DNA of 64,000 nt from a virus (lineage: Duplodnaviria; Heunggongvirae; Uroviricota; Caudoviricetes): IMG/VR virus record IMGVR_UViG_3300032335_000499; one strand, written 5' to 3'. The notes under the pieces were generated by a model. The model was not told where the DNA came from, searched no databases, and saw nothing but the letters and a program-made list of their open reading frames with translations. Numbering within the stretch: the first letter of the stretch is position 1; each line of letters starts with the position of its first letter. The position numbers were made by a program, and so were the translations under genes. This document shows positions 18,199-27,860 of the stretch, piece by piece.

Positions 18199-18578
18199 TG
18201 CTACGGACGGTCAGCGGAGCAGGTAGATATGTGATGGTGCAGGGCGGAATGCCTGCACACACATATATCAACTCTAGTTCAGGTTATATGAATGTTGGAG
18301 ATGTTAGATACAACGTTCAAATGCAGCGACTTGAAGTTTATGATGGTCAAATTTGGGTCGAAATCAGCACTGGTCATGCTAGTGTTGGTCTAACTCCCGA
18401 TGCTGAACGTGCATTAGATTGGGCTAATCGGAAGATTGAAGAAGAAGCCGAACTTGATAGGCTAGCAGCATCTAATGCTACCATCGCTGACCTTATTAAA
18501 CAGAAAAAAGAACTTGATGATAAGATAAAGATGGTTCAAATACTTACGAAGGAAGAAGTAAAAGTTGGAACAAATTAA
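18198..18578 (+). CDS. Hypothetical protein with C-terminal coiled coil
   Basis: Translationally coupled ORF. Confidence 0.65.
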   Translation: MLRTVSGAGRYVMVQGGMPAHTYINSSSGYMNVGDVRYNVQMQRLEVYDGQIWVEISTGHASVGLTPDAERALDWANRKIEEEAELDRLAASNATIADLIKQKKELDDKIKMVQILTKEEVKVGTN

Positions 18579-20118
18579 CCTTTCAAACAGTCACAATCCC
18601 GATTGGGCATTGTTTCTGCCCGCAGTCTCGTCATTTTTCATTGCTGGCTTAGGCAAGCAACGTGAAGGTGAAAACTATTTTGACCCGACGAGAATCCCTG
18701 CGGCATTCAATGGAGACGTTGAATGTTTGAACTTCCTTAATAGCAAGCAAGGTCTCTACACTTATAAGTGGGGCTTGTATTCTGCTGGTCACGCTAATCT
18801 TGATATCACTAAGGATGATGCTTGTGAGAGTATCATTCGCAAGAGAGAAGAAGGCACTTTCATGCTAGGTGACTCTGGTGGATTTCAGATTCTCAAGTGT
18901 CAGTGGCCTGCTGATTGGAAGGACCCTAACTGTCCCCGTGCTATGAAGAAGCGTCAACAAGTTCTTACTTGGATGGATGAATACATGGACTATGGCATGT
19001 GTCTTGATATTCCATCGCAGTCTCTTACGACTTATCACATTAAGGACAAGAAGACCGGTACATCAGCACACGGTATCAGCACGATTGAAGAAGCTATTAC
19101 TGCTACTCACATTAACAATGAATATTTTGTTGCTAATCGTGACGGGCGTTGCAAGTTTCTAAACGTTCTGCAGGGTCGTAATCATGGTCAGTCAGATGAC
19201 TGGTATGAGGAGATGAAGAAGTATTGCGATACGAACATCTACGGTGACAAAGCATTTAACGGCTGGGCATTCGGTGGTCAAAACAAGATTGACATTCACT
19301 TGATGCTACGTAGGCTCGTTGGTATCATTCACGATGGCTTCCTAGAAGAAGGCAAGCACGACCTTATTCACTGTCTTGGTACAAGCATTATGGAATATGC
19401 AGTTATTTTTACTGATATTCAGCGGGCAGTTCGCAAGTATCATAATCCTAAGCTACAGATTACGTTTGACTGTGCTAGTCCGTTCTTTGCTGCTGCAAAA
19501 GGCCTCGCTTACAACAACAACACATTTGAGCATAATACCAAATGGTCTTATTCAATGGAAAAGACTGCTGAAAATAAGGGATATGCAACAGATAACCGTA
19601 AGTTTAGCGATGGTGTCCTTGCTGACAAGATTCACAAGGTGTTCGCTGACAGTCCGGTAACTGACATGATGCTGATGAAAGACTTATGCTATCGTGGTCA
19701 AGGTTTCTTAGGTCAGCACGGCAAAGAAACAAAGACTAGCTGGGACACACTTAGCTATACTCTATTGCAGGCACATAACGTATATCAACATATGACTGCG
19801 GTTCAGGAAGCTAATCGTCGGTATGAGAATGGTATCAAGCCTAAGATGGTTATGGATCCTCTAGGTAATCTCAATTTTTCTGATATCGTTGATGAGATTT
19901 TCTCACTCAAGGATCGTGAAAAAAGTCTGGCTATGATTGACAAATACGACAAGTTTTGGCAGCAGTTTAAAGCTGGTCAAGGATTCAGCGGTAAGAAAAC
20001 AGTCAATGCTCACACTATGTTCGACCAGTTATTTGCAATTGAAGACGCCGACCCTGAAATCGATGAAGTCATTGAAGATGCTGATGACTTGATGGAGGAA
20101 ATATTGAGTGTTCCCTAA
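18565..20118 (+). CDS. dpdA: tRNA-guanine-transglycosylase-like protein; putative DNA 7-deazaguanine insertase
   Basis: TGT motif FMLGDSGGFQI; LD, QG, GG and H.LG elements in TGT order; clustered with folE/queD/queE; TTG start. Confidence 0.78.
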   Translation: MEQINLSNSHNPDWALFLPAVSSFFIAGLGKQREGENYFDPTRIPAAFNGDVECLNFLNSKQGLYTYKWGLYSAGHANLDITKDDACESIIRKREEGTFMLGDSGGFQILKCQWPADWKDPNCPRAMKKRQQVLTWMDEYMDYGMCLDIPSQSLTTYHIKDKKTGTSAHGISTIEEAITATHINNEYFVANRDGRCKFLNVLQGRNHGQSDDWYEEMKKYCDTNIYGDKAFNGWAFGGQNKIDIHLMLRRLVGIIHDGFLEEGKHDLIHCLGTSIMEYAVIFTDIQRAVRKYHNPKLQITFDCASPFFAAAKGLAYNNNTFEHNTKWSYSMEKTAENKGYATDNRKFSDGVLADKIHKVFADSPVTDMMLMKDLCYRGQGFLGQHGKETKTSWDTLSYTLLQAHNVYQHMTAVQEANRRYENGIKPKMVMDPLGNLNFSDIVDEIFSLKDREKSLAMIDKYDKFWQQFKAGQGFSGKKTVNAHTMFDQLFAIEDADPEIDEVIEDADDLMEEILSVP

Positions 20119-20693: not shown

Positions 20694-21146
20694 ATGGATA
20701 ACGTAACACAAGCTCTTGCTGAAAAACAGAAACGCATTAGCGAACAAGCTAAGCGCATGATTTGGGTGACCTTTCAAAAAGAAGGCATTCACAAGTATCC
20801 CGGTGCAGACACCGATCCGAAATTGGCAACTGGCGACGAATATGACGTTAGTTTCCTAGGCTACCCGCATCGTCACATCTTTCACTTTAAGGTGGCGATT
20901 CAGGTATTTCACAATGACCGCGACATTGAGTTCATTCAGTTTAAGCGTTGGCTAGAGAATAGCTTCCGTGATGGAGTGATGAAACTTGACCATAAGTCTT
21001 GCGAAATGATCAGCGATGAGCTATATATGTATATAGCAAATCGCTACCCCGACCGTGACATTGAAATCACTGTATCAGAAGACGGTGAGAACGGTGCCAC
21101 TATCTACTACAACACAACTAAACCCTATCAATCACTTGTCATCTAA
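20694..21146 (+). CDS. dpdL: T-fold QueD paralog; putative 7-carboxy-7-deazaguanine decarboxylase (DpdL-like)
   Basis: LGYPHRHIF matches the LxxxHRHxF signature recalled for DpdL; SCEM and VSEDGENGA T-fold elements. Confidence 0.68.
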   Translation: MDNVTQALAEKQKRISEQAKRMIWVTFQKEGIHKYPGADTDPKLATGDEYDVSFLGYPHRHIFHFKVAIQVFHNDRDIEFIQFKRWLENSFRDGVMKLDHKSCEMISDELYMYIANRYPDRDIEITVSEDGENGATIYYNTTKPYQSLVI

Positions 21147-23559: not shown

Positions 23560-24240
23560 ATGTCTTATAACAAAACTAAAACCGACCCCGAATTGGGTCA
23601 AAAGATTCACGAACACCTAATAAAGATGGGTGTTGAAACTCCCACAAAAGATAGCGCACTAGACCGTAAAGAAAAGATTGAGGTTATTGAAGCACACTTC
23701 AATGGCATTATGAGAGCATTAGGTCTTGACCTAGAAGATGACAGTCTTATGGATACGCCGAAGCGTGTCGCTAAGATGTACGTCAACGAAATCTTTTGGG
23801 GTCTTGACTATGATGCATTCCCCAAGTGTACAACTGTTGCGAACAAGATGAACTACGATGAAATGGTCGTAGAGCGTAATGTCAATGTTCAATCTAACTG
23901 CGAACACCACTTCGTAATCATTGATGGGCTTGCTACTGTTGCATATGTCCCTAACGAAAAGGTCCTCGGCCTGTCAAAGATTAATCGCATTGTTGAATAC
24001 TTTGCAAAACGCCCACAGATTCAAGAGCGTTTGACTGAACAAGTATTCCATGCACTTTGCTACATCCTTGAAACTGAAAATGTTGCGGTCATGATTGACG
24101 CACAGCATTATTGTGTTAAGAGCCGCGGCGTTGAGGATACTGGTTCTTCAACTGTGACTACTAAGCTTGGTGGTGGATTCAAGACTGATGCTGCTGCTCG
24201 TGCAGAGTTTCTTAGCATCGCCCGCATGGGTAAGTGCTAA
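23560..24240 (+). CDS. folE: GTP cyclohydrolase I
   Basis: TPKRVAK, SNCEHHF, GLSKINR, RPQIQERLT and HYCVKSRG. Confidence 0.97.
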   Translation: MSYNKTKTDPELGQKIHEHLIKMGVETPTKDSALDRKEKIEVIEAHFNGIMRALGLDLEDDSLMDTPKRVAKMYVNEIFWGLDYDAFPKCTTVANKMNYDEMVVERNVNVQSNCEHHFVIIDGLATVAYVPNEKVLGLSKINRIVEYFAKRPQIQERLTEQVFHALCYILETENVAVMIDAQHYCVKSRGVEDTGSSTVTTKLGGGFKTDAAARAEFLSIARMGKC

Positions 24241-25132: not shown

Positions 25133-25587
25133 TGTTATATTGTGCGTATGGAATGAATACTAATATTGAACAGATGGCTTCACGCTGTCCTGGTTCCGTT
25201 AGTATTGGTCGTGTTGACATTCCAGATCATCGTCTAGTGTTTCGTGGCGTTGCTGACATTGAAGTAAGCCCCGGCGATACGCTACAGACTGTTATGTGGG
25301 ACATTACTGATGAATGTGAAGTGGCTCTTGATATGCTTGAGGGCTTCCCAACGTTCTATGGCAAAAAGTATATTGATGTTCAAATCAATAACAAGACCTA
25401 TAAAGCAATGATTTATCAAATGATTGGGGATCGACTTGACTATTATAGCCCAAGCAATTACTATCAGTATTTGCTTGAAGAAGGATATAAGGACCACGGT
25501 CTTGAATTAAATCAAATTTATAATGCAGAAGGCTATAGTGAAGTTGAGGATACTCTTGACTACATCAATCGTCGTTATGCTTATTAA
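25132..25587 (+). CDS. Gamma-glutamylcyclotransferase (AIG2-like) protein
   Basis: LYCAYGMN, MASRCP and LDMLEGFP..Y. Confidence 0.85.
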   Translation: MLYCAYGMNTNIEQMASRCPGSVSIGRVDIPDHRLVFRGVADIEVSPGDTLQTVMWDITDECEVALDMLEGFPTFYGKKYIDVQINNKTYKAMIYQMIGDRLDYYSPSNYYQYLLEEGYKDHGLELNQIYNAEGYSEVEDTLDYINRRYAY

Positions 25588-25588
25588 C

Positions 25589-25652
25589 AGTGGTCTTTGG
25601 CGCTCATCCCACTATAAACACTCTGCGTGTCATCTAAAGGAGAACAAAGATG
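25589..25652 (+). ncRNA. Candidate preQ1-I-like riboswitch/pseudoknot overlapping the queD ribosome-binding site
   Basis: P1 AGTGG/CCACT; loop starts with U and ends with C; tail ATAAA; loop TCTTTGG complementary to CTAAAGG, which includes the SD. Confidence 0.45.
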
Positions 25653-26156
25653 ACAAAATATGAACCAGTAAGTTACAAGTATACAAGTACTAAAGAATAT
25701 CACGACTCGTTTCCGTGTGCGTATCGTCAATGGCGAGCCGATAGTCACTGCAATAACATTCATGGCTATTCGTTTACTATCAAGGTATACTTTGGTGCTG
25801 ATACTCTAGATGCACGAAACTGGTGTGCGGACTACGGTGGTCTAAAGGACTTGAAGGCAATTCTTGAAGACCAGTTCGACCACACTTTGCTTGTTGCAGA
25901 AGACGATCCTGATATGGATGTGTTCAAGCTGTTACAAGAACGTAACATGGCAAAGCTGACTATCATTCCAGCAACTGGCTGTGAAGCACTTGCTGACATG
26001 ATTTACAAGTTTGTTAACGGTGTCTATATCCCTGATCACTGGGGTAAGGGCGAAGCTGAACGACTTTGGTGCTATCGTGTTGAAGTTCGTGAAACACAGA
26101 GCAACATGGCTTTCCGTGAAGGTCATCGTGAATGGAATGAGGATTTGCTAGGATGA
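25650..26156 (+). CDS. queD: 6-carboxy-5,6,7,8-tetrahydropterin synthase
   Basis: SHCNNIHGYS, DYGGLK, FDH..L and EALA. Confidence 0.9.
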   Translation: MTKYEPVSYKYTSTKEYHDSFPCAYRQWRADSHCNNIHGYSFTIKVYFGADTLDARNWCADYGGLKDLKAILEDQFDHTLLVAEDDPDMDVFKLLQERNMAKLTIIPATGCEALADMIYKFVNGVYIPDHWGKGEAERLWCYRVEVRETQSNMAFREGHREWNEDLLG

Positions 26157-26344: not shown

Positions 26345-26839
26345 ATGACTAAGAAAGTATATTACACCGACAAACAGATTGATGGCATGGTCCATGATAT
26401 CATTCGTCAAATGAACAATGATAACTGGATGCCTGATTATGTCGTAGGTCTTACTAGGGGCGGACTTAACCCTGCCCTAAAGATTAGTCATTATCTCAAC
26501 ATTCCGATGGAGACGCTTAAGGTCAGTCTTCGTGATGGTGGTGAATCAGAATCTAACTGCTGGATGGCAGAAGATGCATATGAGGGTAAGCATATTCTAA
26601 TCGTTGATGATATCAATGATACTGGTGCTACTCTCAATTGGATTAAAGAAGATTGGCAAGGTAGTGCGTTCAAACATGATCTTAAATGGGAAACTGTTTG
26701 GAACGACACTGTGCGGTTTGCTGTAATAGTTGATAACGATGCAAGCCCAGTTGAAGTTAACTATATCGGAAAAAGTATCAACAAAGCAGAAGATCCGCAA
26801 TGGATTGTCTTCCCTTGGGAAGAATGGTGGAAAGGATGA
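26345..26839 (+). CDS. Purine phosphoribosyltransferase (Gpt-like, type I PRT)
   Basis: VGLTRGGLNPA and the PRPP loop LIVDDINDTGAT; WIVFPWE. Confidence 0.88.
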   Translation: MTKKVYYTDKQIDGMVHDIIRQMNNDNWMPDYVVGLTRGGLNPALKISHYLNIPMETLKVSLRDGGESESNCWMAEDAYEGKHILIVDDINDTGATLNWIKEDWQGSAFKHDLKWETVWNDTVRFAVIVDNDASPVEVNYIGKSINKAEDPQWIVFPWEEWWKG

Positions 26840-26845
26840 TTGACA

Positions 26846-27028
26846 ATGGACTTAATTAGTGTTATAGCTGTAGTATTATTCTGTGCATTAGCATCTGCAT
26901 TCTTGTATGGAATGTGGGTGATAGAAGATGACAGATATCAATTTAGAAAGAAGCACGGCATTGATCCTAAATATCACGGCTGGGTTGTGAAAGACAAAGA
27001 AAAAAATGACGAAAATCAAGATAAGTGA
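26846..27028 (+). CDS. Small membrane protein
   Basis: Hydrophobic N-terminal helix. Confidence 0.5.
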   Translation: MDLISVIAVVLFCALASAFLYGMWVIEDDRYQFRKKHGIDPKYHGWVVKDKEKNDENQDK

Positions 27029-27860
27029 ATTGTTCTACAGTATTCAGGGAGAAGGTCGGTACATGGGTGTGCCGTCCGTTTTCCTTAGAACATATGGATG
27101 CAATTTCAAATGCGCCGGATTCGGCATGCCAAAAGGTGAACTATCAAGTGAACGAGAAAAAGTCAATCCAGAAGACTATAAAGAATATGGTACCCTCCCG
27201 CTCGTCTCTACAGGCTGCGATTCCTACGCATCCTGGGATCCTCGCTTCAAGCATCTTTCTCCCAGCAGGGATGTTGATACTATTGTCAGCGACATTATGG
27301 AACTACTACCGTTTAAAGAATGGAAAGACGAACACCTCGTCATCACAGGAGGAGAACCACTCCTCGGATGGCAACGAGCCTACCCAGAACTCCTAAGTCA
27401 TCCTAAGATGAAGGGTCTCAAAGAGATTACTTTTGAGACTAATGGTACGCAACCACTAAGTGATGAATTGTTTGCTTATCTTGACGATTGGTTGTGGGAA
27501 GGTTTGGACAACGGGATTTCACGAGAAGTCACTTTTAGTGTCAGTGCAAAGTTGAGTTGTTCTAGTGAGAAGGCAGAAGATGCTATCAAGCCCGAGATTG
27601 TTGCACGATATCAAGATGCTGGTCATGCCTATCTTAAGTTTGTTATCGCAACAGAAGATGATGCTAAGGAAGCACTAGCGGCAGTTGAGCGTTATCGTGA
27701 TGAAGGTTTCTATGGTACTGTTTACTTCATGCCAGTAGGAGGCGTTGAAAGTGTTTATCATCTTAATAATCGCACTGTCGCTGATCTTGCTATGAAGAAT
27801 GGCGTTAGATATAGTGACCGTTTGCAAGTTCCATTGTTTAAGAATGCCTGGGCAACATGA
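27006..27860 (+). CDS. queE: 7-carboxy-7-deazaguanine synthase (radical SAM)
   Basis: ELFYSIQGEG, FLRTYGCNFKC...CDS, ITGGEP, ETNG and RLQVPLF. Confidence 0.93.
   Translation: MTKIKISELFYSIQGEGRYMGVPSVFLRTYGCNFKCAGFGMPKGELSSEREKVNPEDYKEYGTLPLVSTGCDSYASWDPRFKHLSPSRDVDTIVSDIMELLPFKEWKDEHLVITGGEPLLGWQRAYPELLSHPKMKGLKEITFETNGTQPLSDELFAYLDDWLWEGLDNGISREVTFSVSAKLSCSSEKAEDAIKPEIVARYQDAGHAYLKFVIATEDDAKEALAAVERYRDEGFYGTVYFMPVGGVESVYHLNNRTVADLAMKNGVRYSDRLQVPLFKNAWAT

Follow-up and report, generated by a model that had tools for sequence, protein, structure and literature searches.

The preQ1-I riboswitches (RF00522) are the closest described counterparts of the RNA reported here, and were considered for comparison as type I (e.g. 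from Carnobacterium antarcticum) and type II (B. subtilis queC and T. tengcongensis). Their specificity cytosine is found in a UC context in type I and in an AC context in types II and III (PMC11625349), and all preQ1 riboswitches described to date are OFF switches (PMC11625349). The preQ1-II and preQ1-III classes (RF01054, RF02680) control queuosine-related genes by pseudoknotted aptamers as well; these are HLout pseudoknots of 80–100 nt with other conserved pockets. Translational ON control via an anti-sequestor is exerted by the adenine riboswitch of Vibrio vulnificus add, and in T4-type phages hairpins that hide the ribosome-binding site (RBS) occur together with an internal promoter. To our knowledge riboswitches are rare in phages, and the known ones are copies of bacterial classes. 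The literature on riboswitches of phage queD or for 7-deazaguanine yielded no description of an RNA of the kind presented below.

The element is located in the window, i.e. the whole stretch of 64,000 nucleotides of phage DNA that was analysed, and the evidence strongly supports a genuine RNA pseudoknot that is conserved and coupled to a helix hiding the RBS. The queD leader comprises 62 nt and fills the entire gap between the stop codon of a GGACT-like ORF (TAA, 25585–25587) and the ATG of the regulated gene (25650–26156, + strand), which encodes a QueD-like T-fold protein of the PTPS family in its CxxxHGY form. Letters and coordinates of the element at 25589–25652 had been given correctly in the first-pass annotation. 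On the + strand, stem P1 is formed by AGUGG (25589–25593) and CCACU (25609–25613) and encloses a loop of 15 nt (UCUUUGGCGCUCAUC, 25594–25608) which ends in UCAUC. This loop contains L1 (UCUUU, 25594–25598), consisting of a variable first base, a near-invariant C-U and a spacer of variable length, the 5′ strand of P2 (GGCGC-U-CA, 25599–25606), and L2 with U25607 and C25608 (25607–25608) directly 5′ of the second P1 strand. The tail AUAAACACUCUGC (25614–25626), whose A-rich portion AUAAACACUC (25614–25623) constitutes L3, leads into the 3′ strand of P2 (UG-C-GUGUC, 25624–25631), and GUGUCAUCU is positioned between the tail and the Shine-Dalgarno (SD) sequence AAGGAG (25637–25642), 7 nt 5′ of the ATG. 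A second, sequestering helix combines the 5′ arm UGUCAUCU (25628–25635), which shares 25628–25631 with the P2 3′ strand, with the 3′ arm AGAUGACA (25648–25655), which includes the queD start codon (25650–25652), so that the SD sequence lies within the hairpin loop. Since the aptamer of the window begins 2 nt past the upstream stop codon, P1 may be disturbed by terminating ribosomes. No convincing promoter was found near the motif in the window, and no terminator is predicted on the + strand.

The motif recurs widely among related phages. When IMG/VR was scanned at the protein level with the QueD-like sequence as query, 595 relatives were obtained, 80 of which were kept, and the same motif is present just upstream of the queD-like gene in 76 of 81 sources (the 80 kept relatives and the window). 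Two of the five motif-less sources end at a contig edge, with the upstream sequence missing, and a third carries a partial copy only. A gene-blind DNA pattern made from the invariant core identified at least 120 additional loci, with the full motif in about 100 of the 120 pattern matches listed. A covariance model built from the protein-derived leaders locates a single copy in the 64-kb window (25587–25636, 59.5 bits, E = 9e-12; runner-up 12.6 bits), and one copy per locus in 86 of the first 100 pattern loci listed. With both sets pooled, at least 158 distinct phage leaders carry the motif. Both the single high-scoring copy in the window and this recurrence place it far beyond chance. Among the 156 ORFs called downstream across the 158 leaders, 147 are QueD-like, with 30–98% identity to the window protein, whereas, of the remaining nine, six are miscalled starts before queD and the others encode a cupin, a methyltransferase-like protein and a protein without assignment. 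A -10 box matching at five of six positions lies 3–12 nt 5′ of P1 in 57 of 155 leaders, as compared to 13 in a control window, which suggests that the motif is often situated at the 5′ end of the transcript.

Outside this group the motif is nearly absent. A blastn search with the region and a consensus-like motif against 50,697 GenBank phage records gave no true match, and the covariance model had zero matches genome-wide in the five closest cultured phages with QueD-like genes, namely Acidovorax phage ACP17, Dinoroseobacter phage R5C, Xanthomonas phage X1, Cellulophaga phage phiST and Flavobacterium phage immuto 2-6A, in which queD is found without any such leader. When a strict pattern was applied to 185,579 cellular species genomes, only two short contigs of metagenome-assembled genomes were matched (L209:5788–5824 and L210:119–159, from bins assigned to Bacteroidetes and Chitinophagales), with the motif preceding a queD truncated at the contig end; by their shortness and the truncated gene both contigs are probably phage fragments, and they give a weak hint of Bacteroidota hosts. 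As far as these searches show, GenBank phages lack the motif, cellular genomes hardly ever carry it, and uncultured phages are its only known source.

Pairing was evaluated in a MAFFT alignment of 64 distinct leaders (A1) and in an independently found, pattern-derived set of 79 leaders (A2). P1 (AGYGG/CCRCU) is paired to 100% in A1 and to 99.5% in A2, three of its five pairs covary (counts that ignore phylogeny), and the variants comprise GUGG/CCAC, GCGG/CCGC, CCGG/CCGG, UCGG/CCGA and GAGG/CCUC. Its two closing pairs at the top are G-C in all 64 and all 79 leaders, respectively. The P1 stem put forward in the first-pass annotation is hence confirmed by covariation across queD leaders. In the second helix, bases towards the 3′ end of the P1 loop pair with the sequence starting at the UG of an invariant UCUGC; this helix is paired to 89% in A1 and 90.6% in A2, with changes on both sides in six of seven pairs (A1) and in five pairs (A2), again ignoring phylogeny. 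The observed covariation score was reached by none of 500 shuffles, and sliding the partners by 1–3 columns lowers the pairing to 30–45% in A1 and to 30–49% over both sets. In the window G25599–A25606 is paired with U25624–C25631 (GGCGC:GUGUC, the invariant U·C opposition 25604/25626, then C-A:U-G), with an RNA duplex energy of −7.8 kcal/mol. The C-A:U-G part is changed to CG:CG in two relatives (L041 and L045), in which the A-U pair is replaced by G-C and UCGUC faces UCCGC. As P1 and P2 interleave, the fold is an H-type pseudoknot.

Several single-stranded positions are invariant or nearly so. Bases 2 and 3 of L1 are CU in 155 of 158 leaders, the overall length of the P1 loop ranges from 13 to 19 nt, and the U preceding the CA of P2 is found in 158 of 158. 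The last loop C, directly 5′ of the P1 3′ strand, is likewise invariant (158/158), as had been proposed; the base before it is U in 147, C in 8 and A in 3 leaders, and L2 as a whole reads UC in 141 of 158, the remainder being CC, TTC, AC, TCC and CTC. The A-rich tail is retained as well, with A at tail positions 3, 5 and 7 and UC at positions 9–10, before P2, in each of 155 leaders. The bases adjoining P2 are, however, Y-U-C and not A. The supposed conservation of the first loop U is not seen in the family, where this base is U in 60, C in 55 and A in 43 of 158 leaders.

The plain minimum free energy (MFE) of the window leader is ordinary (z −1.2). In the corresponding fold (−14.8 kcal/mol) UCUUUG of L1 (25594–25599) is paired with CAAAGA (25645–25650) just 5′ of the AUG, a third alternative structure that is confined to the window and its close relatives and does not extend to the wider family.

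The pairings originally proposed for the loop differ from the ones described above. The extra ACAC/GUGU hairpin is not conserved, as GUGUC is part of the P2 3′ strand, with GGCGC of the loop as its partner, and ACAC belongs to the conserved tail; the real second helix is formed between GGCGCUCA of the loop and UGCGUGUC, not between loop and SD. The anti-SD pairing UCUUUGG:CUAAAGG can be drawn for the window (L1-to-RBS duplex −6.0 kcal/mol, z −0.9) but has no signal in the family (median z −0.05 versus shuffles). Comparison across leaders thus rules out both pairings. These data also bear on the alternative of an ordinary preQ1-I OFF switch, with the SD bound by the loop and queD repressed by preQ1 or by a closely related compound. 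Such a switch would be consistent with the alignment of P1, UC and AUAAA tail to the RF00522 consensus, and also with the UCUUUGG:CUAAAGG and UCUUUG/CAAAGA pairings available to the window. We nevertheless regard it as very improbable: the L1:RBS pairing has the absent family signal just mentioned, the base equivalent to U6 varies, P2 is located 10–30 nt 5′ of the SD, and the P2 3′ strand competes with the sequestor instead of forming it. RF00522, moreover, gives no match in the window at E ≤ 10 and reaches at most 10.6 bits in relatives, at a cut-off of 39.

The competition between P2 and the sequestor takes place in the expression platform. Folding of the downstream segment shows that in 141 of 144 leaders the RBS window pairs with at least four of the eight nucleotides following UGC, which form the P2 3′ strand, and that in 139 of 144 either the SD or the AUG is sequestered. 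For the duplex of arm and RBS the median energy is −7.6 kcal/mol (z −2.3 versus shuffled arms), and 64 leaders have an uninterrupted helix of at least 6 bp across the AUG. In the window the MFE hairpin UGUCAUCU/AGAUGACA pairs the start codon at −8.5 kcal/mol. Compensatory changes in the sequestor are found at positions −2/−1 (CU/AG versus UG/CA), +3 (U-A, C-G and U·G) and +5, counted from the A of the AUG. Four platform designs can be distinguished, namely a short AUG hairpin as in the window, a long AUG hairpin with an inner stem, direct pairing with GGAGACA, and a CCUAUG/CAUAGG(AG) hairpin, all of which take the P2 3′ strand as sequestering arm. The platform thereby shares nucleotides with the aptamer, the pseudoknot and the sequestering helix are mutually exclusive, and the resulting logic would be ON. 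Nearest-neighbour energies, in which neither the tertiary nor the loop contributions of the pseudoknot are included, favour the sequestor duplex over the P2 duplex in 94% of leaders; on the same basis the values for the window are −8.5 kcal/mol (sequestor) and −7.8 kcal/mol (P2). By default the RBS should therefore be hidden, and stabilisation of the pseudoknot should set it free. The first-pass annotation had implied the opposite, i.e. OFF control by burial of the SD in the aptamer, which does not fit a P2 strand competing with the helix that hides the start codon.

OFF logic could still be achieved by a route that is not visible in the secondary structure, e.g. by blocking a standby site or by recruiting an RNase. 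Feedback repression is the usual logic for biosynthetic genes, and the ON reading is based on anatomy alone; yet the four platform designs sharing the P2 3′ strand as their arm would be hard to explain unless P2 releases the RBS, and we consider a hidden OFF route improbable.

In a group of related loci, termed class A, a sigma-70-like -35/-10 pair with a spacing of 16–18 nt is embedded in 62 of 68 leaders, the window leader not being among them. The -35 element is provided by the aptamer tail (TTTACA or TATACA) and the -10 element by TATAAT, TAAAAT or a similar sequence in the SD-hiding hairpin loop; examples are L095:3528–3600 (− strand), L090:96–175 and L088. Transcription from this internal promoter would yield RNAs that have neither aptamer nor 5′ hairpin arm and thereby escape control. 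Only one of 87 non-class-A leaders has such an embedded promoter. That tail and hairpin loop can be read as promoter elements in those 62 class A leaders might indicate that a DNA element (promoter or operator), and not an RNA, is the object of conservation. This explanation is hardly credible, as the window and 86 of 87 non-class-A leaders keep the motif without that promoter, two interleaved helices that both show compensatory changes are characteristic of RNA, and the motif keeps to one strand, on which it invariably precedes the gene.

On balance the most likely reading, which we consider rather probable, is that the leader is a new phage-specific riboswitch variant with ON control of queD translation. 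The candidate translational riboswitch would consist of an aptamer (25589–25631) and the expression platform. A 5-bp P1, a P2 of about eight positions and the 2-nt UC junction would assemble into the H-type pseudoknot, in which the junction cytosine would occupy the place of the preQ1-I specificity cytosine and the A-rich tail would line the minor groove of P1. Without extra stabilisation the sequestering hairpin would be favoured over P2 and translation would be low. A small-molecule ligand bound at the P1/P2 junction would lock P2 and withdraw its 3′ strand from the hairpin, whereby the AUG (in other phages the SD) would be freed and translation presumably be switched on in vivo. ON logic is unusual for a biosynthetic gene, which counts against this reading.

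The same anatomy would also be compatible with an operator that is independent of a ligand or depends on a protein, where an RNA-binding protein, the ribosome or S1, temperature or co-transcriptional folding selects between P2 and the hairpin. A conserved pseudoknot with a competing helix fits any trigger that stabilises P2, and the class A hairpin with its embedded promoter is a purely structural device. T4-like phages use RNA-binding translational repressors and RBS-hiding hairpins, which may by analogy serve as a precedent. Three features are, on the other hand, typical of metabolite aptamers, namely about 20 invariant unpaired or junction nucleotides within a 45-nt fold, the strict linkage to one enzyme family across QueD-like proteins of 30–98% identity, and a likeness to the preQ1-I pocket that extends point by point to the G-C pairs closing P1, the C that precedes its 3′ strand and the A-rich tail. 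Among the neighbours, no conserved gene is conspicuous as a candidate for an RNA-binding protein. An operator of this kind is the main rival to the riboswitch, albeit an unlikely one.

The protein under control was assigned by Pfam (PF01242, 1.7e-18) and PHROG (phrog_2389, 'QueD-like'). Of the 147 QueD homologues linked to the motif, 146 have CxxxHGY where CxxxHGH is the canonical signature of QueD. It was considered whether proteins with CxxxHGY might not be genuine QueD enzymes, but this was dropped, since Rhizobium phage RHEph04 has the HGY form beside QueC, QueE and FolE and near a transglycosylase gene; judged by this genomic context, CxxxHGY is probably a working QueD variant. In a number of relatives (L032, L037, L018, L034, L052, L053 and others) the QueD-like proteins have 15–30 extra N-terminal residues, and in these the leader-controlled start codon is placed further 5′ of the conserved YKYTSTK block.

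The gene neighbourhood provides hints on the pathway. In the window, queD is accompanied by folE (23560–24240), a cytidylyltransferase-like gene, glycosyltransferases and an epimerase, and is followed by a phosphoribosyltransferase (PRT) gene (26345–26839) and a QueE-like radical SAM gene (27006–27860). Homologues of the phosphoribosyltransferase are similarly placed in 36–47 motif-bearing loci, which suggests a nucleotide-level step or guanine salvage in the pathway. Frequent neighbours at motif loci are genes for QueE-like, FolE, glycosyltransferase, cytidylyltransferase, UvdE, epimerase, PRT and HIT proteins. Further upstream in the window, a T-fold-like protein of 150 amino acids (20694–21146) resembles DpdL and contains LGYPHRHIF; LxxxHRHxF is the signature proposed for the CDG decarboxylase DpdL (PMC10516641). 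It is preceded by an ORF of 517 amino acids without Pfam or PHROG match (18565–20118), with a 2OG-Fe(II) oxygenase gene between the two. DpdL-like homologues are present in 14 and homologues of the 517-residue ORF in 13 of 15 large motif-bearing contigs, usually close together. A full QueC was found in none of these 15 contigs, three of which are 92–100% complete, and tblastn with phage QueC gave no match in the window. The gene set of motif-bearing phages thus comprises FolE, QueD-like, QueE-like and DpdL-like proteins without QueC, which supports the earlier proposal that the phage is unable to make preQ1. Going by gene content, the pathway product points to 7-deazaguanine, as in Cellulophaga phage phiST, and the FolE-QueD-QueE-DpdL route probably yields 7-deazaguanine DNA.

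Given the missing QueC and the DpdL-like protein, a ligand other than phage-made preQ1 is reasonable. The guanine-pairing cytosine together with the pathway defines the candidates, which by analogy include 7-deazaguanine, CDG, preQ0 or preQ1 of the host, guanine, or a pterin such as the substrate of QueD. In its most specific form the proposal is that of a virus-only riboswitch class, possibly derived from preQ1-I type I, which would sense a metabolite other than phage-made preQ1 (7-deazaguanine, CDG, guanine from base exchange or the pterin substrate of QueD) and turn on translation of the committed enzyme of DNA hypermodification; this full combination is tentative and falls slightly short of an even chance.

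The motif appears to be confined to uncultured, mostly large phages of freshwater type. If the proposed reading is true, phage DNA modification would for the first time have a riboswitch of its own, and a preQ1-I-like fold would for the first time be seen in an ON switch. Identification of the ligand would imply that phages meter their anti-restriction DNA chemistry with an RNA sensor of their own, and would provide an ON-type relative, with a longer P2, of the best-studied minimal aptamer fold, which would inform on the evolution of specificity and logic, as well as a compact inducible translational switch of about 65 nt. The question is directly testable with the exact boundaries, the pairing partners and invariant bases, and the few candidate ligands given here.

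In order to relate the motif to known RNAs, Rfam 15 was searched at gathering level, without a match in the window or in 20 relatives; at E ≤ 10, three leaders gave matches at chance level only (CyVA-1, freshwater-2, miRNAs and a scaRNA). The weakest likeness is that to CyVA-1 (RF02965), which consists of two hairpins, the second with a GGAGAAC loop, and scores 19.5 bits (E 0.049) in the window. This is below the cut-off of 41.4 bits and the relatives are not matched, so that the identity was rejected as a chance match, sub-threshold and restricted to the window. Published CyVA-1 RNAs come from large intergenic regions and are not linked to queD (PMC5737381). The preQ1-II and preQ1-III models did not match in any of the Rfam searches.

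Two of the known systems resemble the platform. With the RBS-hiding hairpins of T4-type phages the class A relatives share a -10 box in the SD-hiding loop, from which transcripts would start that lack the 5′ arm and would hence be translatable; the feature is missing from the window leader, and class A combines the hairpin with an aptamer. In the add riboswitch, as is proposed for the phage leader, a ligand-stabilised aptamer pairing takes away one arm of the helix that hides SD or AUG. The add aptamer is, however, a purine aptamer with a three-way junction and not a pseudoknot, it is bacterial, and it controls a catabolic gene.

The likeness to preQ1-I is the most extensive. RF00522 had no match in the window, neither at gathering level nor at E ≤ 10, and its best score at any motif is 10.6 bits (L019) versus a cut-off of 39, which agrees with the departure from preQ1-I noted in the first-pass annotation. 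In one relative, the RF00522 consensus can be aligned to P1, to the UC that precedes the second P1 strand, and to the AUAAA tail. Both have a small H-type pseudoknot with a 5-bp P1 and conserved closing G-C pairs, and the RF00522 consensus P1 is identical to AGUGG/CCACU of the window. Both further have a cytosine immediately 5′ of the second P1 strand, with a U before it as in type I, as well as a 3′ tail rich in A, and lie in the leader of a 7-deazaguanine pathway gene. In contrast to the P2 of preQ1-I with its 3–4 bp, P2 of the phage motif spans about eight positions with an invariant U·C mismatch. The conserved first U of L1 in preQ1-I (U6), which reads N9 of preQ1, has its place taken by a varying base at the start of a long L1, and the UU atop P1 in types I and III by a variable base followed by CU. 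While in preQ1-I an adenine next to the P2 3′ strand reads the ligand edge, the phage tail ends in YUC. In preQ1-I the SD bases are part of P2, or a terminator follows, and the logic is OFF, whereas in the phage motif the SD is found 10–30 nt downstream of P2, and P2 competes with the RBS-hiding helix, which would give ON rather than OFF logic; moreover, the phage motif is seen only in uncultured phages without QueC. Since model score, U6, a short SD-containing P2 and OFF logic all differ from preQ1-I, the motif is not filed as a member of that class. It may nevertheless work like preQ1-I and perhaps be its descendant.
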